This document shows positions 56-54,223 of a DNA stretch of 57,615 nt, one piece after another. The notes beneath the pieces are model-generated. The model saw only the letters and a program-made list of their open reading frames with translations, ran no database searches and was not told the origin of the DNA. This stretch comes from a virus. Numbering within the stretch: position 1 is the first letter of the stretch; each line of letters starts with the position of its first letter. The DNA is taken from IMG/VR virus record IMGVR_UViG_3300045988_146331, positions 1 through 57,615 of that record. The stretch is one strand, 5' to 3'. The position numbers were made by a program, and so were the translations under genes.

Positions 56-1166
56 TTAATATTTCTATAATTTCTTTCTTTTTCATGTTCTTTGGGATAT
101 CTATATTATACTTATTCGCTAGTTCTAATAATTCATCTTTTTTATAATCTTCTAATCGTTTAATTCCCATAAAATCATTAAATTTTAATTCAGCATATTC
201 AATATACCATGTTTTATCAATATCGTCAATAGTTAGTTTGTTCGCGTTATCTACAATTGGATTCGGAGGACAATTTGCCAAACTATCTCGCCTCCCATTG
301 GGTTTTATTTTTATGATATTACCACTAGGAACAAGTCCAGCATATATACGATTGTTTTTTTGTAACTCAATATCTCCATTTGGTGATTCTTGTACACATT
401 TTTCATAGGTGGAACCTAAATGAGATATCATTTGAAAACGGAATATATCATTGCAATTATTTATCGTATCTTCAATTGGAATATCAAATAATAATTTCTT
501 TAATAATGCCTCACTTACAATACTTAAGGAATTACTTTTTAAACTCTTTTTGTATGTATATTCAAATACTTTCTTATCCTTATTCCATTTGAAATTATGT
601 TCACCTCGTGTCAATTCTCCACCTTTGTAATTGACTTTGTAATCATTATCTCCGGTTTGAATAATTTCTGCAAAATTGTTAACATCACGAGCAACACATT
701 TTACAACATTGTCTTCTTCTAATTCAAGTCCCGTTAATCGTTGCCAATTATCTAAAATTTTAATAGCATTTTGTTTATATTCTTCATCTATAAAAAATTT
801 GACAGCATCTGTATTAGCTTCGCACATTTCTAAAGTTGGAACACTTTGCAAATCATGTATTAATTGTAGTATTAATAACTGACCGGTTGTGCAAATACTA
901 AATCCTTGTAAATTATCATATAATGGATTGAATGGCGCTCGTAATGCTCCAGTATAAGCATTGATCGGCAACTTTAATCCTTTGTTTACATCGCCCATTG
1001 TAACATCATATTCTCTTAAAAAATCATTTGATAACTTGTTATGTTTCGCTTTTATACGAGTACGTTTTATGTTTATATAAGCATCTTTATCTTTCTGATT
1101 TCTACTAGAATACCCAAATATTTCTATCTCACTTGGATAAAGGGATCCGGAGTGATGCGACATCAT
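1..1166 (-). CDS. Family-B DNA polymerase, catalytic (palm/thumb) half. The ORF runs off the left edge and continues in frame at 57560.
   Basis: Manual minus-strand translation gives MMSHHSGSLYPSEIEIFGY...GLKLPINAYTGALRAP...MCEANTDAVKF...NYKGGE... This contains SLYPS (end of motif A), a KxxxNxYxG motif-B-like segment and an NTDA motif-C-like segment. No in-frame stop between 1166 and 1, which is why it is missing from the ORF track. Confidence 0.8.
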   Translation of the reverse strand, partial: MMSHHSGSLYPSEIEIFGYSSRNQKDKDAYINIKRTRIKAKHNKLSNDFLREYDVTMGDVNKGLKLPINAYTGALRAPFNPLYDNLQGFSICTTGQLLILQLIHDLQSVPTLEMCEANTDAVKFFIDEEYKQNAIKILDNWQRLTGLELEEDNVVKCVARDVNNFAEIIQTGDNDYKVNYKGGELTRGEHNFKWNKDKKVFEYTYKKSLKSNSLSIVSEALLKKLLFDIPIEDTINNCNDIFRFQMISHLGSTYEKCVQESPNGDIELQKNNRIYAGLVPSGNIIKIKPNGRRDSLANCPPNPIVDNANKLTIDDIDKTWYIEYAELKFNDFMGIKRLEDYKKDELLELANKYNIDIPKNMKKKEIIEILKEKGDLINMAKKENNITE

Positions 1167-1272
1167 AATTTAATAACAATCGCTTACCCATTTACATCAC
1201 CCCTCACCATAATATTGCCATTCATTATTCAACTTTAAATCTGTTGGAATTAAAATCACATCTTTCATAATT
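1143..1272 (-). other. Disrupted motif-A region of the polymerase gene (stop-filled coding gap, frame change, partial duplications)
   Basis: Frame A reads ...INYERCDFNSNRFKVE-TAA-TGA-MAILW-TGA-GVM-TAA-MGKRLLLNYDVASLRIPLSK-TGA. Frame +1 reads MMSHHSGSLYPS... The direct repeat AATTATGA occurs at 1272-1265 and 1170-1163. Confidence 0.85.
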
Positions 1273-2103
1273 TATAACACCTTCTTTTAAAAAAGCATGA
1301 CCTCCACCAAGTCCAACTTGAAATAATATCGAACCGAAATCAAGTAGAGGTGGCTCTGGTTTATAATTTAAATCATTGTGTTCGATTAAATCGTCAATAT
1401 AATCTAATACTTCTTTCGGTATTTTACTTTTATCAACTATGTCCGGATATACATATGCGAAATTATCGTCATGTTCAATTCTAGTAGCATTTAGTAATTT
1501 CGCTGTTAAATTCGCATCAGTCAACGACAATGCCTGGGCATAATCCATTTTACCAAGCTTGGCAATGATGAATTTTGATTTATATCTATTAATCAACATT
1601 TCAAATATTGGGAACAAGGCATCAACATCACATCGGCAATAATATAATACTTCTTGAAATTGTTCTTCTGTCCATTTTGTTTTTAAATCAAAAGGAATTG
1701 TTGTTTCTGTAATGTTTAGTCCTAAATTACCTTCTAATTCTTTTAATGATTTTCTAGGTACAATACATGGCATTAAATCCCAGATTATAGGAAGTTTTAC
1801 ATTTTCACATGGTATTTCCCAACCATTCCCACCACCTACAATATAATCACTCAATTCTCGTAATTCTTCTGGTGTAGCTCCGGCTAACCAAAATTTCAAG
1901 ATATATTTATCATATTCATTTGAATTATAACCACATAAAATAGGGTTATTTTTATCAATAAATTGTTGCAATTCATTTGCGCTACAATTATGTGCTACAT
2001 ATTCTTCTCGGGTTGTATATTTTTTAAATACGAATAAACTATCATGCGCAAATGATTCCGCATCGAAGAACCATAATGTATTTAGTAAATCATCAAATGT
2101 CAT
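1225..2103 (-). CDS. Family-B DNA polymerase, N-terminal 3'-5' exonuclease half
   Basis: ExoI FFDAES, ExoII NSNEYDKYIL, ExoIII YYCRCDVDAL. Ends ...GGGHAFLKEGVINYERCDFNSNRFKVE*, i.e. inside the pre-motif-A/motif-A segment. Confidence 0.8.
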   Translation of the reverse strand: MTFDDLLNTLWFFDAESFAHDSLFVFKKYTTREEYVAHNCSANELQQFIDKNNPILCGYNSNEYDKYILKFWLAGATPEELRELSDYIVGGGNGWEIPCENVKLPIIWDLMPCIVPRKSLKELEGNLGLNITETTIPFDLKTKWTEEQFQEVLYYCRCDVDALFPIFEMLINRYKSKFIIAKLGKMDYAQALSLTDANLTAKLLNATRIEHDDNFAYVYPDIVDKSKIPKEVLDYIDDLIEHNDLNYKPEPPLLDFGSILFQVGLGGGHAFLKEGVINYERCDFNSNRFKVE

Positions 2104-2105
2104 TA

Positions 2106-2315
2106 TTATTCCTTATGATTTTTCTCATCTTCTTGAGGTTTTTTTAATTCTTGTAGCGCTGTCAAATATAATTCTAATTCGCGTTCTGCATTACTTTCTT
2201 GTGACTTAAACCAGCTAAACCAGCTGCTAACAATACCAACTATAATAGCTATTAGAAACAATACAACAAATAACAAACCCAAAAATTTTATAGCAAATAT
2301 AAGAGACTCTATCAT
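2106..2315 (-). CDS. Small membrane protein
   Basis: ORF track; one long hydrophobic helix (FLGLLFVVLFLIAIIVGIV); tightly packed in the operon. Confidence 0.55.
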   Translation of the reverse strand: MIESLIFAIKFLGLLFVVLFLIAIIVGIVSSWFSWFKSQESNAERELELYLTALQELKKPQEDEKNHKE

Positions 2316-2316
2316 A

Positions 2317-2502
2317 CTACTTTACCTCACTTTCATCTTTAACATATGTTCTACCCTTTATTCTTTTTACAGAAACATATCTTCCTACCGCTTTATCATA
2401 TATTTTCGCAGGTTGCGGTTGAGCAAAAAAGATGCTCCCTCTATTTTTATATAATTCTTTATAATAGTTTTGTTTTTCTTTATAATTCTTGAATTCTTCC
2501 AT
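2317..2502 (-). CDS. Hypothetical protein
   Basis: ORF track; 1-4 nt spacing to neighbours. Confidence 0.5.
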   Translation of the reverse strand: MEEFKNYKEKQNYYKELYKNRGSIFFAQPQPAKIYDKAVGRYVSVKRIKGRTYVKDESEVK

Positions 2503-2505
2503 AAA

Positions 2506-3921
2506 CTATCCTCCCATTATTTCATAGTTTTGTTGTTTATATATTTTTTTACGTTCTCTTAGGAACTTGTCTAATTTCCCAACATCATCAACAATGTCAT
2601 AAACATTCGCATATTTTTTACCTTTATAAGGTCTTTGAACTCGACCAATACTTTGTATAACTATTCTTAAATCTTTTACAGGCGTTGCCATTACTAAATT
2701 TTCTAATATAGGGGCGTTAAAACCTTCACAAATCAATTTATAGGTAGCAAATAAGTACTTTATTTCACCTTTTCTAACTAGATCTAGTCCTCTTTCACGT
2801 TCTGCCTTTTTAGTAGAACTATCTACAAAAAACGCATTATCAAAATAACTAGCAAGTTCTTTCAATTGACTGGTTCTATCGCTTACAACAATTGTAGAAC
2901 CTTTTAAAGAGGACAATAAGTCCAATATCAGTTTATTTCTAGCTGTATCTTCCGCAATATCTGTTAATAATTTTGAAAACGATACAGTTTGATTATCATT
3001 CATGAATATGTCTTTACCCATTACACTATAATTAGTATAAATATAATATATTCGAGCTGGAATTTGGAAATCAGCTGCATTTACACTAACTATATTTTTA
3101 TTTTCATAGATGCCAATTAACTTATCGTCAACTTTTTTTAATTCATATATTATATTGCCAATTAAATATGGTATTACTTTGTGAAGACCATTGCTAGTAT
3201 GCAACGTAGCTGTCAAACCCAATTTATACCTACTTGCAAAGTAATTCATACATTTTTGAAATTGCATTACAGATTCACCACTTATAATACAATGCTGAAT
3301 TTCATCACCAATTACCATACCAAACGCATCCTGTGGAATTTCTTCTTTATCAATTACATTTGATAATGTTTGAATAGTTGCAAATACAATATCACCACTA
3401 TAATCACATTTGCCTTTAGTTATTGTGCTAGTTTTACATATCATGTTGCTTTCACATTCGGTTTTCGCTTGATTTAGCAAATCTTGCGTATGAGTGAGCC
3501 ATAATGTCTTTTGTTTTAATTCACCAAAACACGCTAATGCTGTCAAAGTCTTACCCGTCCCTGCAGGTAATATAAATAGCCCATTATAGTACTTTTTAAT
3601 GGCATCTAAGCAAGGAACTTGATAATCTCGTAATTTTATATTACTAACTACATTAACCGGCTTATCGTTGCTAAAATCAACCCAATCATCCGTAATAGGA
3701 TGAATTTTCCATAAATCATTGAATGAGCCTATTGGTAAATAATACATATCGTTATATTTTGAGTAAACTGTTATAAATCGAGAAATATTACCTACATAAA
3801 AACCCATTCGTTTTCGTTTTTCAAAATCTGGATTAGGAAAAGTCAAATTGTTTTTACAATATAACTCAATATCTTTTGTGTAATCAGTTATTGTAATAAC
3901 ATTACTTATATATAGTTTCAA
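2506..3921 (-). CDS. SF2 DEAD/DEAH-box DNA helicase (TTG start)
   Basis: Walker A LPAGTGKT, DExH box GDEIQH, C-terminal helicase domain (QSIGRVQR). The start overlaps the stop of the upstream gene. Confidence 0.85.
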   Translation of the reverse strand: MKLYISNVITITDYTKDIELYCKNNLTFPNPDFEKRKRMGFYVGNISRFITVYSKYNDMYYLPIGSFNDLWKIHPITDDWVDFSNDKPVNVVSNIKLRDYQVPCLDAIKKYYNGLFILPAGTGKTLTALACFGELKQKTLWLTHTQDLLNQAKTECESNMICKTSTITKGKCDYSGDIVFATIQTLSNVIDKEEIPQDAFGMVIGDEIQHCIISGESVMQFQKCMNYFASRYKLGLTATLHTSNGLHKVIPYLIGNIIYELKKVDDKLIGIYENKNIVSVNAADFQIPARIYYIYTNYSVMGKDIFMNDNQTVSFSKLLTDIAEDTARNKLILDLLSSLKGSTIVVSDRTSQLKELASYFDNAFFVDSSTKKAERERGLDLVRKGEIKYLFATYKLICEGFNAPILENLVMATPVKDLRIVIQSIGRVQRPYKGKKYANVYDIVDDVGKLDKFLRERKKIYKQQNYEIMGG

Positions 3922-4313
3922 TGTCGTTCGTTCCTTTTAATACATACACAATCTTTTTCCAAATCAAGATATCCTTTTGATTTAAATAAAAGCCTTGCTG
4001 AGTCCCATGTTATACAATATTGCCCCAAAACATCACTTTTAATGAAAATCAATATTTCATTATTACCTTTTGTTCTAAAATTATCAAGCTCATCTCTTTT
4101 ATGTCGTAAGCCACTATTTTCAAAGTACAACTTAGTGTTTTTAGTATGCTTTGCTTCAATGCAAATTGCTTTATTATTACGTATTGCAATAATATCAAAT
4201 ACTGTACCTGCAATGTCGGTCGATAATTTAAAAGTACAATATCCTTGTTTAGAATAGTTTTCCATTATCTCTTGTTCCCAAGATTTACCAATCTTATATT
4301 GTTGAAGTCCCAT
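3918..4313 (-). CDS. Hjc/archaeal-type Holliday-junction-resolvase-like PD-(D/E)XK nuclease
   Basis: GKSWEQEI...FDIIAI...IEAKHT pattern (D...E-x-K). Confidence 0.65.
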   Translation of the reverse strand: MGLQQYKIGKSWEQEIMENYSKQGYCTFKLSTDIAGTVFDIIAIRNNKAICIEAKHTKNTKLYFENSGLRHKRDELDNFRTKGNNEILIFIKSDVLGQYCITWDSARLLFKSKGYLDLEKDCVCIKRNERH

Positions 4314-5339: not shown

Positions 5340-5413
5340 TGGCACGTTCTTAAGGATTTGAACCCTAATTGATGGTTCTGGAGACCATAGTCCTACCATT
5401 GAACGAAGAACGC
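5340..5413 (-). tRNA. tRNA-Trp (anticodon CCA), CCA end encoded
   Basis: GCGTTCT-TC-GTTC-AATGGTA-GGAC-T-ATGGT-CTCCAGA-ACCAT-CAAT-TAGGG-TTCAAAT-CCTTA-AGAACGT-G-CCA folds as a cloverleaf. Confidence 0.85.
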
Positions 5414-27090: not shown

Positions 27091-27119
27091 TTGACAATCA
27101 CTATCATCTATGTTATACT
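27091..27119 (+). promoter_or_regulatory. Promoter TTGACA-17-TATACT of the large ncRNA/tRNA transcript
   Basis: TTGACAatcactatcatctatgtTATACT. Confidence 0.8.
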
Positions 27120-27125
27120 TATCAA

Positions 27126-27690
27126 GAACCAGTTGACAAATATCAATACAATGATAGCTGGATTTATCATTACCTCTGTAATTAGAGTGCAGATTTTAAT
27201 GGTTAGAGGTGTTACTTTGTGTAAACTAGTAATATAGTATGGAGTGATACGAAAATGATAAAGTGGTGCAATAATAGAGATTAAAAACATCTACAGATCC
27301 GCATGAACTATGAAAGCTAATGTTTTCAGCCTAGAAATAGTAAAGGCATTATGTGAGTAATCTAGTCTTTATACTTCCCTGACAAGAAGAGTAATGGCTA
27401 GACGTCAAGGAAATGTTATGTCGTTGAACCTAGTAATAGGGTATAAGGAGTATGTAGAGTACAAGTAGCGGAAATCGACGTTTTAAGTTTTCAAAAAGGC
27501 AAATGATTTTAAATAATCAAATAAATGTATAAATAATAGGTTCTTATGTCCGTGAAAGTTTGTAGTCATCGTGCTATGCCACAAAAAATCGGCAAGGTAT
27601 ATCCAAGGTCGCTCCTTGGGGAAGAACCTTGTTAGTGGTGGTTGAATATAATTGTTATTATTGCATTAGGGAGAAATCCCCAATTTTATT
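27126..27690 (+). ncRNA. Candidate large (~565 nt) structured non-coding RNA co-transcribed with a tRNA (ROOL/GOLLD-like context)
   Basis: No plausible ORF on the transcribed strand; locally higher GC. Helices: 27172-27177/27205-27210, 27538-27545/27622-27629, 27603-27608/27614-27619. GNRA hairpin GGGA-GAAA-TCCC at 27669-27680. No terminator before the tRNA. Confidence 0.6.
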
Positions 27691-27765
27691 GGCTACATGA
27701 TCCAAAGGTTACGATGCTGGACTGTCTATCCAGAAATTAGAGTTCGATTCTCTATGTGGCCGCCA
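27691..27765 (+). tRNA. tRNA-Asp (anticodon GTC), CCA encoded; unusual U at position 37
   Basis: GGCTACA-TG-ATC..GAT-G-CTGGA-CTGTCTA-TCCAG-AAAT-TAGAG-TTCGATT-CTCTA-TGTGGCC-G-CCA. Confidence 0.75.
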
Positions 27766-50410: not shown

Positions 50411-50486
50411 TGGACGATAGAGTGAGATTTGAACTCACGTATAATGGTGTTGCAGACCATTCCCTTAACCACTTGGGTATCTACCG
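50411..50486 (-). tRNA. tRNA-Cys (anticodon GCA), CCA encoded
   Basis: CGGTAGA-TA-CCC..GGG-A-ATGGT-CTGCAAC-ACCAT-TATAC-GTGAG-TTCAAAT-CTCAC-TCTATCG-T-CCA. Confidence 0.8.
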
Positions 50487-51859: not shown

Positions 51860-51968
51860 ACACATTATTTGCATTTCTAATGTGTGTTTTTGCACATTTT
51901 TACACATTATTTGCATTTCTAATGTGTATATTTAACATTTTTTATACATCATTTACATTTTAATGTGT
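51860..51968. repeat. Three 42-bp-spaced units, each with inverted repeat ACACATTA-N10-TAATGTGT (third unit degenerate)
   Basis: Units at 51860-51885, 51902-51927 and 51944-51968; each is followed by TTTTTRMACATTTT. Confidence 0.85.
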
Positions 51969-51987
51969 ATTTTTAACATTTTAATAA

Positions 51988-52014
51988 AAAAGATAGGTTT
52001 TTAGCCTACCTTTT
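51988..52014 (-). terminator. Hairpin terminator downstream of 52080..52364
   Basis: AAAAGATAGGtttttagCCTACCTTTT (one mismatch). Confidence 0.55.
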
Positions 52015-52017
52015 GTT

Positions 52018-52035
52018 AAGGACATAAATGTCCTT
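52018..52035. other. Perfect palindrome AAGGACAT-AA-ATGTCCTT
   Basis: Read directly. Confidence 0.8.
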
Positions 52036-52079
52036 ATCTTGCAAGTTCCCGTCATCGGGCTACCTTATAGGCATTTGCA

Positions 52080-52364
52080 TTAAATTATAGTTGTACCAGT
52101 GCAGCAACCATTTGTTACTTGATAGTTTAAGCAACAATTAGGGTTTACAACCGGATATGATGGAACAGGTTGTGGTTTTAATTGGTTAACTAAATAGTTG
52201 TTTTGTGCATTTTGTGATGCAGCTAAACGTAACGCATTGATTTCATTTTGTTGTGATGCAATTTGAGCATTCTTATCTTCAATTCGGTTAGCGATAAGTT
52301 CATCATGTAAAGCACGATAATTACTATTAATACTGTCTACAATATCTCTAGTATTCATATTCAT
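52080..52364 (-). CDS. C-terminal portion of the Gly/Asn-rich protein gene (downstream of the intron). The frame stays open upstream to 52443 without a start codon.
   Basis: Upstream extension HNGCKTQNAIQGVNYNLATNTCALQNT-MNMN... is homologous to the end of 53462..53941 (NGYETRNAIQGVSSQLADC). Cys-rich C-terminus NPNCCLNYQVTNGCCTGTTII. Confidence 0.55.
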   Translation of the reverse strand: MNMNTRDIVDSINSNYRALHDELIANRIEDKNAQIASQQNEINALRLAASQNAQNNYLVNQLKPQPVPSYPVVNPNCCLNYQVTNGCCTGTTII

Positions 52365-52449
52365 TGTGTTTTGTAAAGCACAAGTGTTAGTTGCTAAGTT
52401 ATAGTTAACTCCTTGAATAGCATTTTGAGTTTTGCAGCCATTGTGTTAT

Positions 52450-53530
52450 CATATAGATGTTTATTCTATATTTCAATATGTTTCCATATTGTTCAGACTA
52501 TATCTTCACCTTTCTCATTTTGAGTTAAGGGACAGGCACTCTTGGGTATATTATATTCTCTTTTGAGTTTCAATACCTAGTCGTTGAGCCTTTACAAATC
52601 ATTTAAATTTGTACTTGGTTGCTGATTGCCTCGGCTAATATTTTTTTTAAATTGTCTTTTGATAAATCATCATTATATTTTAATTTTATTAGTGTTATAT
52701 TATTATTTTTACAAAATTCTTCCTTTATTTTATCTTTGTATCTTTGATATTCCAAAGTGTTTTTACCTTTATGGAAATAAGGTATATATTTATAATGTTG
52801 GATTCCATTATATTCTATTGCTAAATTATATTTTTCAAAATAACAATCTACTCTTAACTTTCTATTTGTTTGTGGATTTTTTAAATCATTAAATTCTTTC
52901 TCCAATTGATAATCACTTTTTAAAATTTCTTTAATAGTATCAAAGCACTTTATAGCACTTAATGAAGTATCACTTCTACTTTTTTCGATATATACACCAT
53001 TTACTAAACCAATAAATTCTTTATAAGAGTTTATCCCTTGTTCTTCTAATAAATAATATATTTTTCTAGCGGATATATTAAATTTTTTTTCTATCTCACC
53101 AATTGAAACTTGATTGTCATTTATATAATTACTTAAATCATCTATTGTTATTTTTTCTCTATTTTTATTTCTATACCATTGAGTTGCACATTTTTTTGAA
53201 CAACATTCTAAATCTTTTCTATAAGATAAAAAGTTTTTTTTACAATTTTTACATATAATATTATATTTCTTCATATTATGATATTTATATTTGCTATAAC
53301 ATTTATCACTACAAAATTGTTTTTTTTGTTTGCTTTCAAACTCTGTGTTACAAATTTTACAAATGTTTTTCATTTAAATCACCTAATAAAATTATACTAC
53401 AATTTAATAAATATTGCAAGGGGTTTCCAGCAGTTCACCTGTTTTTATAAGTAGTATATTTCTATACTAGACTACCTACTGTATTTACTTTTGTAAATTT
53501 ATTCTTTACGGCTATAAAGAATTTCTTTAA
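52450..53530 (-). mobile_element. Group I intron (boundaries approximate) carrying a homing-endonuclease ORF
   Basis: J8/7-P7 core AAGATATAGTC (52506-52496) with partner GACTA (52582-52578). GAAA-capped helices at 53469-53452 and 52490-52475. Terminal G at 52450. The endonuclease ORF sits in a peripheral loop. Confidence 0.7.
52603..53373 (-). CDS. Intron-encoded homing endonuclease: N-terminal CxxC zinc fingers + HTH + C-terminal Vsr/PD-(D/E)XK-like nuclease
   Basis: CKICN...CSDKC, CKNCK...CSKKC; HTH NISARKIYYLLEEQG; nuclease-like LRVDCYF...LAIEYNGIQHY. Confidence 0.65.
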   Translation of the reverse strand: MKNICKICNTEFESKQKKQFCSDKCYSKYKYHNMKKYNIICKNCKKNFLSYRKDLECCSKKCATQWYRNKNREKITIDDLSNYINDNQVSIGEIEKKFNISARKIYYLLEEQGINSYKEFIGLVNGVYIEKSRSDTSLSAIKCFDTIKEILKSDYQLEKEFNDLKNPQTNRKLRVDCYFEKYNLAIEYNGIQHYKYIPYFHKGKNTLEYQRYKDKIKEEFCKNNNITLIKLKYNDDLSKDNLKKILAEAISNQVQI

Positions 53531-53941
53531 GCAGTCTGCTAATTGACTTGAAACACCTTGAATAGCATTTCTAGTTTCGTAACCATTAGTCATAATAGCA
53601 TTGTTAACTCCAGCAAAACCATTTAATAAACTTGTATTCATAGCATAGAAACCATCACATAATCCATTTTGAATGTATCTACTTTGTGCTGTTAAATCAC
53701 CGAAGCCATCACTAAGCTGTCTTTGAATTGTGGCAAAATCACTTGCAAGTATATAGTTATCACTAGCACCGCTGCCATTACCACCGAATAAACCATTACC
53801 ATTTCTTCCCCAACCAGTGAATGCAAAGATTAAGAAAATAATTATCCACCATGCACCGGTTCCGTCGCCAAAACCAGCGTTGTCTCTATTATTTCCAGTT
53901 ATCAGTGCTACATCAGCTGGGCTTAATGAATTGTCTCTCAT
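53462..53941 (-). CDS. Gly/Asn-rich membrane protein, upstream exon (the ORF reads through into the intron to a TAG inside an intron hairpin)
   Basis: TM helix GAWWIIIFLIFAFTGW flanked by GNG repeats; repeated NG-x4-NAI units. Confidence 0.6.
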   Translation of the reverse strand: MRDNSLSPADVALITGNNRDNAGFGDGTGAWWIIIFLIFAFTGWGRNGNGLFGGNGSGASDNYILASDFATIQRQLSDGFGDLTAQSRYIQNGLCDGFYAMNTSLLNGFAGVNNAIMTNGYETRNAIQGVSSQLADCLKKFFIAVKNKFTKVNTVGSLV

Positions 53942-54001
53942 AATTCCTCCTTATAAAAATAATTAGGGCTTGCAAATTATATTAAAAACCAATTATTCTT
54001 A

Positions 54002-54223
54002 TTATTTGAAATTATTCATAAAATTAGAAAATTCTTCATCAAAATTTAAACCTTTTTCTTTAAATAGATTTTTTGCGAACTCTTCAATGCCTTTTGTATC
54101 GCCTTGATTAGCCATGTTTATTAGATTATTTATCATTGGATTAGCATTATTACCAATCATTTTCATTACCACATTCTTTGGATTCCCTGCGATAGTTTTT
54201 AAAAAATTCATAGGATTATTCAT
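54002..54223 (-). CDS. Hypothetical protein
   Basis: ORF track. Confidence 0.5.
   Translation of the reverse strand: MNNPMNFLKTIAGNPKNVVMKMIGNNANPMINNLINMANQGDTKGIEEFAKNLFKEKGLNFDEEFSNFMNNFK

Follow-up and report, generated by a model that had tools for sequence, protein, structure and literature searches.

The DNA analyzed here, referred to below as the window, is the whole stretch of 57,615 nucleotides (nt) of the viral record IMGVR_UViG_3300045988_146331 (IMG/VR), and our study concerns a region of its minus strand in which three open reading frames (ORFs) can be read: ORF A (53941-53462, 159 amino acids, aa) and ORF C (52364-52080, 94 aa), both minus strand, flank a longer ORF B. We found that ORF A and ORF C are parts of one host gene on the minus strand, belonging to the family phrog_16490, and that a group I intron (53529..52439) interrupts this gene and contains ORF B, a homing endonuclease gene. 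The main features of the locus are as follows.

52439 to 53529, minus strand: group I intron of 1,091 nt, running from UAAAGAAAUU... to ...GAUAACACAAUG, with its terminal G at 52439; assigned from the frame restored on excision and from core covariation
53530 to 53941, minus strand: exon 1, codons 1 to 137 plus the first base of Cys138; phrog_16490 positions 6 to 138; homology to the uninterrupted homologues stops at ...QLADCC
52080 to 52438, minus strand: exon 2, beginning with the second base of Cys138 and ending with the stop codon; phrog_16490 positions 164 to 261; colinear with intron-less homologues
52603 to 53373, minus strand: ORF B, homing endonuclease of 256 aa; assigned from phrog_9084, family alignments, AF2 models, and Foldseek
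53379 to 53384, minus strand: AGGUGA, resembling a Shine-Dalgarno sequence and located 5 nt before the ATG of the endonuclease; assigned from the sequence

One host gene split by an intron

Both flanking ORFs matched phrog_16490 in a PHROG profile search, at the positions (of 286) given above, and a conceptual fusion of ORF A and ORF C, used as a query, recovered at least 7,779 database proteins, with full-length homologues of 251 to 263 aa. The 120 best-ranking homologues of the fusion are 245 to 263 aa long, most of them cover 96 to 100% of the query, and they are uninterrupted, with the alignment reading ...NGYETRNAI[QN]GVSSQLAD-CCC-KTQ[SN]AIQGVNYNLATNTCALQNTMNMNTRD.... Since both flanking ORFs match the same family and thousands of homologues are uninterrupted, it follows that the intron splits one gene, as had been proposed in an initial annotation of this DNA, which placed a group I intron between the two halves of a single protein gene. 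In ORF A, the final 22 aa are without homology; the gene caller runs 22 codons into the intron, up to the TAG at 53464-53462.

Furthermore, two intron-less loci (L001 and L005) show the same gene order as the window, with genes for proteins of 150 and 73 aa, the host gene, and genes for proteins of 150, 156, and 118 aa. The host gene was found in gut-phage records, in Clostridium perfringens phages, and in one Butyrivibrio phage, where its annotation is nearly always hypothetical, and it is a conserved, late membrane-protein gene of gut phages.

Splice boundaries

Excision of the intron restores in frame the homologue sequence GCAGACTGCT/GCTGCAAAACT (here and below, a slash marks the junction), and the spliced ORF consists of 771 nt, coding for 256 aa plus the stop codon and reading ...QLADCCCKTQNAIQGV..., so that the restored protein across the junction is ...SSQLAD-CCC-KTQNAIQGV.... 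The comparison with intron-less homologues, suggested in the initial annotation, bears this out, as their DNA is unbroken over the junction (GCAGACTGTT/GCTGCAAAACTCAA in L005 and GCTGATTGTT/GTTGCAAAACTCAA in L001): the homologue DNA at the site reads GCAGA[CT]TG[TC]T/G[CT]TGCAAAACTCAA, and the intron-less site of L001 and L005 reads GCAGA[CT]TG[CT]TG[CT]TGCAAAAC. The sole pair of boundaries reproducing the intron-less sequence has exon 1 ending at T53530 and exon 2 starting at G52438, with the insertion point between the first and the second base of the third Cys codon of the CCC motif. The first base of the intron is a U, preceded by an exon U, and its last base is a G.

52439 to 52450, minus strand: 3' tail of the intron, GAUAACACAAUG, ending in G52439; family-conserved GAUAACA(N3-4)UG end; no other site restores the frame

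It had been presumed that the terminal G (omega-G) lies at 52450, and simple splicing there would not join the two long reading frames. The position needed correction: the true terminal G is G52439, and an exon 1 ending at U53530, combined with this terminal G, joins both frames. The earlier frame problem arose because the 3' splice site had been put at 52450.

Two candidate splice sites were rejected. With a terminal G at 52450, all three frames meet stop codons, and G52450 opens the conserved GAUAAC tail that follows helix P9.1. A 5' splice site after T53533 would give ADCCKTQ, while the homologues have three Cys, and helix P1, described below, would lose its U·G pair.

Pairing at the splice sites and other introns at the same codon

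53530 to 53536, minus strand: exon strand of P1, GACUGCU, with U53530 as the 5' splice-site U; exon and guide change together in L008, L011, and L006
53470 to 53476, minus strand: internal guide sequence GGUAGUC (3' strand of P1), 54 nt past the splice site
53478 to 53481, minus strand: guide strand of P10, CAGU, pairing with GCUG at 52438-52435; P10 is also present in L008, L011, and L006, with different sequences

No convincing P1 pairing or internal guide sequence had been recognized previously, but such a pairing exists, and in three other introns the guide changes along with the exon: the exon sequence GACUGCU (53536-53530) pairs with the guide GGUAGUC (53476-53470) over 7 bp, with U·G at the splice site. 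In P10, GCUG of exon 2 and CAGU form 4 bp. The P1 loop (53529-53477) holds two small hairpins in the minimum free energy (MFE) fold.

The same codon position is occupied in divergent homologues by three further introns, i.e., those of L008/L009, of L011, and of the Clostridium perfringens phage CPQ4 (L006), whose spliced products read ADCCCEN, AECCCNL, and SSCCCETN, respectively; the products of L008 and L006 were translated, and the reading of L011 was derived by hand from its sequence. In particular, we could notice that changes of the guide match changes of the exon, with GUUGCU facing GGCAAC and GCUGUU facing GACAGC. The flanks of the window and of L008, compared in search of co-conversion tracts, are alike, and the motif is conserved in all homologues, so that this comparison is uninformative.

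Catalytic core and covariation

The sequence motifs listed in the initial annotation are each present on the minus strand at the positions it gave, among them AAGATATAGTC at 52506-52496 and GACTA at 52582-52578. The elements of the ribozyme are the following.

53452 to 53469, minus strand: P2 hairpin, UAGUAUA-GAAA-UAUACUA; from the sequence and the MFE fold
53438 to 53442, minus strand: 5' strand of P3, ACAGG, pairing with CCUGU at 52536-52532; 5/5 pairs covary, with 100% of the cells paired in 39 introns
53427 to 53437, minus strand: J3/4 and 5' strand of P4, UGAAC-UGCUGG (P element), invariant in the family and pairing with UCAGCA at 52625-52620
53409 to 53421, minus strand: 5' strand of P5/P5a, CCUUGCAAUAUUU, closing the ORF-bearing loop; cofold with 52643-52629, with compensatory changes in L010 and L011
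52620 to 52643, minus strand: 3' strand of P5a/P5, J5/4, and 3' strand of P4, AAAUAUU-A-GCCGAGG-CAA-UCAGCA (Q element), within the last endonuclease codons
52589 to 52618, minus strand: P6 (CC/GG) and P6a hairpin UACAAAU...AUUUGUA; P6 is 100% and P6a 92% paired, every pair covaries, and the ORF stop codon lies in the P6a loop
52578 to 52588, minus strand: J6/7 and 5' strand of P7, CUCA-ACGACUA (R element), invariant and pairing with 52500-52495
52545 to 52577, minus strand: P7.1-like helix lying between P7 and P3', formed by GGUAU...AUACC and enclosing a CUC/GAG stem; 86% paired, 4/5 pairs covary
52532 to 52536, minus strand: 3' strand of P3, CCUGU; from the covariation alignment
52509 to 52530, minus strand: P8 hairpin, CCUU/AAGG and CUCA/UGAG; 61% paired, with a variable loop length that makes the alignment imperfect; Rfam alignment
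52495 to 52508, minus strand: J8/7 and 3' strand of P7, UGAAGAUA-UAGUCU (S element, region of the guanosine-binding site); Rfam match, family-invariant
52475 to 52490, minus strand: P9 hairpin, AAUAUG-GAAA-CAUAUU, covarying; Rfam alignment
52451 to 52471, minus strand: P9.1-like hairpin, AUAUAGA/UCUAUAU, previously described as a terminal helix of 7 bp; 95% paired, 7/7 pairs covary

The structure read from the window (P3, P4, P5, P6, P6a, P7 pseudoknot, P7.1-like helix, P8, P9, and P9.1) was scored on a core alignment (A3) of 39 introns, six of them ORF deleted and 33 compact. In this alignment, 90.9% of the cells are paired versus 33 to 45% when the partners are slid by 1 to 3 columns, compensatory changes on both sides occur in 37 of the 52 pairs, and none of 500 shuffles attained the observed values; the structure comes from one of the aligned sequences, a bias somewhat in its favor, and the margin is still large. 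In the window's own sequence, 50 of the 52 core pairs are formed. Moreover, the P, Q, R, and S elements (GAACUGCUGGAAA, AAUCAGCAA, UCAACGACUA, and GAAGAUAUAGUCU) are present and family-invariant, and the window keeps all the invariant positions of the intron family. Because of the extra helix between P7 and P3', the intron is a group I intron of the subgroup IA type.

An Rfam scan, which had been suggested as a check of the intron, gave a partial result. At the gathering threshold it detected a ROOL RNA and three tRNAs elsewhere in the window and no intron; a permissive scan of 51900-54100 returned, in the 3' half of the intron, a partial match to Intron_gpI (RF00028) at 52537-52476 (26.2 bits; E value of 4.7e-4 in a 2.2-kb search), spanning the model positions 159 to 251 (P8, J8/7, P7', and P9). 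Likewise, Rfam returned nothing at an E value of ≤0.01 on the loci of CPQ4 and of phage phiCP13O. The ORF insertion defeats the Rfam model, and ORF-deleted alignments were therefore used; the ORF-less members L100, L136, L153, and L201 of the alignment give full-length Intron_gpI matches of 80 to 101 bits. Introns in other phages were reached through the relatives of ORF B, and a search with the pattern of the R and S elements recovered at least 120 viral loci, of which many are compact and ORF-less.

A different P6, formed by CCUUGCAA and UUGUAAAGG and leaving the ORF in L6, was considered and rejected, as the family alignment shows that CCUUG is P5 and that P4' and the Q element lie in the ORF tail.

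As a separate observation, the region 1-2229 of L201 contains seven tandem Intron_gpI matches (61 to 101 bits), six of which are full length and one cut at the 5' end of the contig, with spacers of only ~17 to 110 nt between the introns. It looks like an extreme multi-intron gene, and L200 and L205 look similar. A related 3' intron core was also noticed in phiCP13O (JF767208.1, L007), between the coding sequences gp23 and gp24, ~1 kb apart and annotated as phage-related minor tail protein, and a related intron with the same endonuclease family lies in L010 inside a tape-measure-like gene (...FEAAMS/KVQALTGAT...). These two cores are probably further unannotated introns.

Placement of the ORF and dual coding

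The endonuclease ORF is contained in the loop of P5, which is closed by an extended stem between CCUUGCAAUAUUU (53421-53409) and AAAUAUU-A-GCCGAGG (52643-52629), and its last ~15 codons also encode P5a', P5', J5/4, P4' (Q element AAUCAGCAA), and P6. In the family alignment (A2), the C-terminal peptides of the endonucleases are of two types, AEAISNQ... or RANQQPSQ..., and both correspond to the ribozyme segment GAGGCAAUCAGCA[AG]CCAAG (52620-52643 in the window, minus strand) read in two different frames. Thus, the conservation of this segment is at the RNA level.

Endonuclease

ORF B matched the families phrog_9084, annotated as homing endonuclease (E value of 2.9e-17), and phrog_7140, annotated as intron encoded nuclease. 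The protein begins with two Cys4 zinc ribbons of the pattern CxxC...CxxxC (C5, C8, C21, and C25; C41, C44, C58, and C62), which score under the Pfam thresholds, and continues with a helical domain (approximately residues 77 to 125) and a predicted Vsr-like nuclease domain (residues 137 to 256). In 16 close relatives, both ribbons and the residues D176, E187, Q192, and H193 are conserved; in 46 broader relatives, E187, G190, Q192, and H193 are invariant and D176, N189, and D214 nearly so, with E158 being conserved in the close family only.

The AF2 models have a predicted local distance difference test (pLDDT) value of 84 for the full-length protein and of 94.8 for the C-terminal domain. Foldseek, run with the domain model, matched Vsr (1vsr, probability of 0.98; 1cw0, probability of 0.89) and I-Bth0305I (3r3p, probability of 0.85 and template-modeling [TM] score of 0.47), together with protist mitoribosome proteins and the RAP module of FASTKD4, which we took as RAP domains, and other PD-(D/E)XK enzymes. 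On the basis of these models, the nuclease domain is predicted to have a Vsr-like fold of the EDxHD type, within the PD-(D/E)XK superfamily. The residues E158, D176, N189, H193, and D214 are candidate equivalents of the EDxHD composite, which they fit by order and approximate spacing when compared with E25, D51, H64, H69, and D97 of Vsr.

The protein had previously been described as carrying two zinc fingers, a helix-turn-helix (HTH), and a PD-(D/E)XK-like C terminus. The fingers stand as zinc ribbons, and the C terminus as a putative Vsr-like domain of the PD-(D/E)XK superfamily, whereas the helical middle domain may be an HTH. The canonical D...(D/E)-x-K motif (I-Ssp6803I type) does not occur, the corresponding residues being D176...E187-Y-N189, without the lysine, and the similarity to canonical PD-(D/E)XK enzymes is at the level of the superfamily fold only.

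Distant relatives join the same nuclease domain to DUF4379, DUF723, or CapR zinc-finger domains, which fits the modular makeup of homing endonucleases. In the loci L014 to L018, which encode endonuclease relatives with 47 to 48% identity, the R and S signature that was searched for did not appear. A further relative of the endonuclease and intron, with 54% identity, was observed in L012/L013 (~359-4062; one contig is of 137 kb), where it splits a gene into pieces of 511 and 367 aa; the 511-aa piece has weak Pfam matches to RNA-dependent RNA polymerase (RdRP; PF05183), and we read the gene as coding for a YonO-like RNA polymerase.

Alternative explanations

Some observations weigh against the interpretation of the locus as a mobile intron with a Vsr-like enzyme. 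The P1 loop, with 53 nt, is unusually long; two core pairs in the window are C-A mismatches, at the ends of P4 and P5; and the Rfam score of 26.2 bits is under the gathering score of 50. As for the endonuclease, the Foldseek E values are only ~1e-2, and a sequence search of the PDB with the endonuclease profile gave no meaningful match, with neither 3r3p nor Vsr at an E value of ≤1.

The sub-threshold Rfam score and the two mismatches are also what a decayed, non-splicing group I intron, with the host gene as a pseudogene, would lead one to expect. We consider such decay very unlikely in view of the other core pairs being intact, of the presence of every invariant family position, of the intact endonuclease ORF, of the occurrence of the same allele on 12 contigs, and of the otherwise very wide conservation of the gene in this phage group. 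The score itself is low because the 775-nt ORF insertion in L5 is not bridged by the model.

A second alternative originates from the similarity between the ends of the two exons.

53556 to 53570, minus strand: copy in exon 1 of a 15-nt direct repeat, AAATGCTATTCAAGG, which encodes RNAIQG; the exon-2 copy lies at 52425-52411

The initial annotation reported ~75% identity over 60 to 70 nt and regarded the locus as an intron-containing target copy followed by a tandem 77-nt intron-less duplicate, which could perhaps be a relic of homing or repair. The similarity is real but smaller, extending over 36 nt with 30/36 identity (83%; 53587-53552 versus 52442-52407) and featuring the perfect 15-mer at 53570-53556 and 52425-52411. 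In addition, the 9-mer AACACAATG at 52447-52439 returns 77 nt downstream, at 52370-52362, and has a total of 5 occurrences in the window versus 0.8 expected. A tandem target copy is nevertheless extremely improbable. In fact, the similarity is that of an internal protein repeat (ETRNAIQGVSSQLA and KTQNAIQGVNYNLA), which predates the intron because intron-less homologues have it at the same spacing, with ETRNAIQGVSSQLA and KTQ[S/N]AIQGVNYNLA in the same order. Of these two copies of AACACAATG, the upstream one corresponds to the tail of the intron, AACA(N)AAUG, conserved in the family, and the downstream one consists of the conserved exon-2 codons Q-N-T-M. The 77 nt (52438-52362) are the normal 5' end of exon 2 and are needed to complete the 256-aa protein; in the intron-less homologues, ...CCCKTQ[S/N]AIQGVNYNLATNTCALQNTMNMN... 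directly follows at the DNA and protein levels, and the presence of the KTQNAIQGVNYNLATNTCALQ segment in them contradicts a duplicated target.

Regarding this repeat, a natural allele, P0019 (L003:1952-2689 and L004:483-1220), was observed with an in-frame 54-nt deletion with respect to L001:3001-3792. The deletion lies between perfect 16-nt direct repeats (AAATGCTATTCAAGGT) and removes the CCC insertion site; the allele was seen in two samples and, apart from the deletion, shares 99% identity with the intron-less L001. In relatives, the same pair as the 15-nt repeat pair of the window bounds the 54-nt deletion allele, which may be homing resistant.

Finally, the reading as two independent small genes (159 and 94 aa) with a free-standing endonuclease gene and no intron, which is how gene callers annotate the locus and how the pieces in CPQ4 are annotated (as separate hypothetical proteins), can be set aside as having next to no likelihood in the face of the thousands of uninterrupted homologues, of the last 22 aa of the 159-aa ORF without homology, of the covarying group I core on both sides of the ORF, and of P1 and P10 fitting the exon ends.

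Other features of the window

Erf-like and RecE-like recombination genes are found upstream of the locus, and a gene for an endolysin-like M23 peptidase downstream. When 22 kb of the window was compared with known phages by megablast, no match was obtained. The ROOL RNA (RF03087, 125 bits, full length) is located at 27105-27700 on the plus strand, with a 10-nt overlap with the start of a tRNA at 27691-27762, and the two other tRNAs of the window are at 50414-50486 and 5343-5413, both on the minus strand.

Proposed mechanism and implications

The locus is very probably a mobile group I intron with a homing endonuclease inside the phrog_16490 gene, and the intron, judging from its sequence, is well formed and probably active; its catalytic splicing and the DNA cleavage are what we infer. 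The transcript would fold into a P1-P10 group I architecture, in which the guide GGUAGUC would keep U53530 in P1 and an external guanosine would attack after this base. The 3'-OH of exon 1, thus set free, would then attack after the terminal G52439, with P10 aligning exon 2, and the exons would be joined as ...GCAGACUGCU/GCUGCAAAACU..., giving the 256-aa host protein. The 256-aa endonuclease in the P5 loop would be translated separately and presumably cuts intron-less alleles near ...CAGACTGCT/GCTGCAAA..., the repair of which would copy the intron in (homing).

As to the distribution of the element, the exact truncated exon-1 product, corresponding to the interrupted allele, occurs on 12 contigs from several sources (the longest of 57,649 bp), a 95%-identical endonuclease is found at the same site in a different phage lineage, and the same insertion site is occupied in four divergent host genes.

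It follows that three predicted genes reduce to one 256-aa host protein and one mobile intron that carries its endonuclease; the annotation of Clostridium phage CPQ4 and of several metagenomic phages calls for the same correction. The main call of the initial annotation was right, whereas its 3' splice site and the idea of a target duplication were wrong. The element is of an ordinary kind and leaves the present understanding of group I introns unchanged. As a natural system, it lends itself to the study of the association between introns and homing endonucleases and of target escape, its assets being a covariation-backed intron subfamily (at least 120 viral loci), an ORF 3' end doubling as ribozyme core, and two unrelated endonuclease families that occur in the same loop at the same site. 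As a tentative and rather unlikely combination, it is possible to hypothesize that all of the following hold together: that zinc ribbons, helical domain, and nuclease make up an uncharacterized Vsr-like (EDxHD-type) architecture; that the GIY-YIG enzyme of CPQ4 is a natural swap in one intron loop; and that the 15- to 16-nt repeats yield in-frame 54-nt deletion alleles without the homing site, these being either homing resistant or products of the loss of intron plus site.

Comparison with known systems

The td, nrdB, and sunY genes of phage T4 contain group IA introns with the endonucleases I-TevI, I-TevII, and I-TevIII. Common to these and to the window is a group IA-type intron in a phage protein gene (review PMC3984707), with an endonuclease ORF looped out from a peripheral helix and having its own ribosome-binding site, and they share the R element ..CAACGACUA.., the S element ..GAUAUAGUC.., and the 3' end ..AACA(N)AAUG. 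Different from the T4 introns, the ORF of the window occupies L5, with its last ~15 codons doubling as P5a', P5', P4' (Q element), and P6. Moreover, the T4 enzymes are of the GIY-YIG or HNH type, whereas the nuclease of the window is predicted to be Vsr-like, and the T4 host genes serve nucleotide metabolism, whereas that of the window codes for a late membrane protein.

I-Bth0305I, from the group I intron in recA of Bacillus phage 0305phi8-36, is the prototype of the EDxHD (Vsr-like) homing endonucleases (PMC3239194). Like it, the enzyme of the window is intron encoded, with a predicted Vsr-like catalytic domain at the C terminus and a predicted DNA-binding region at the N terminus. However, I-Bth0305I has NUMOD2 motifs at its N terminus, instead of two zinc ribbons and a helical domain, the spacing from N to H is 5 versus 4 in the window, the host genes differ, and the enzyme of the window is without a sequence-level match to 3r3p or Vsr. 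CapR, DUF723, and DUF4379 have been described as zinc-finger DNA-binding modules of phage homing endonucleases, on T5orf172 nuclease domains (PMC10448857); in the relatives of the window enzyme, such modules are attached to a Vsr-like domain instead.

A further comparison is that with CPQ4 (MZ401006.1), in whose published annotation (region 2092-3463) the homologous gene is split into hypothetical proteins and the intron is not annotated. Its ribozyme is homologous to that of the window (75% identity over 165 nt), 49 of the 52 core pairs form, and the ORF is also in L5. The intron is inserted at the same site, inside the CCC codons of the homologous gene, and its ORF codes for an unrelated endonuclease of the GIY-YIG/NUMOD1 type. 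Therefore, the same intron lineage, at the same site, carries two different endonuclease families.

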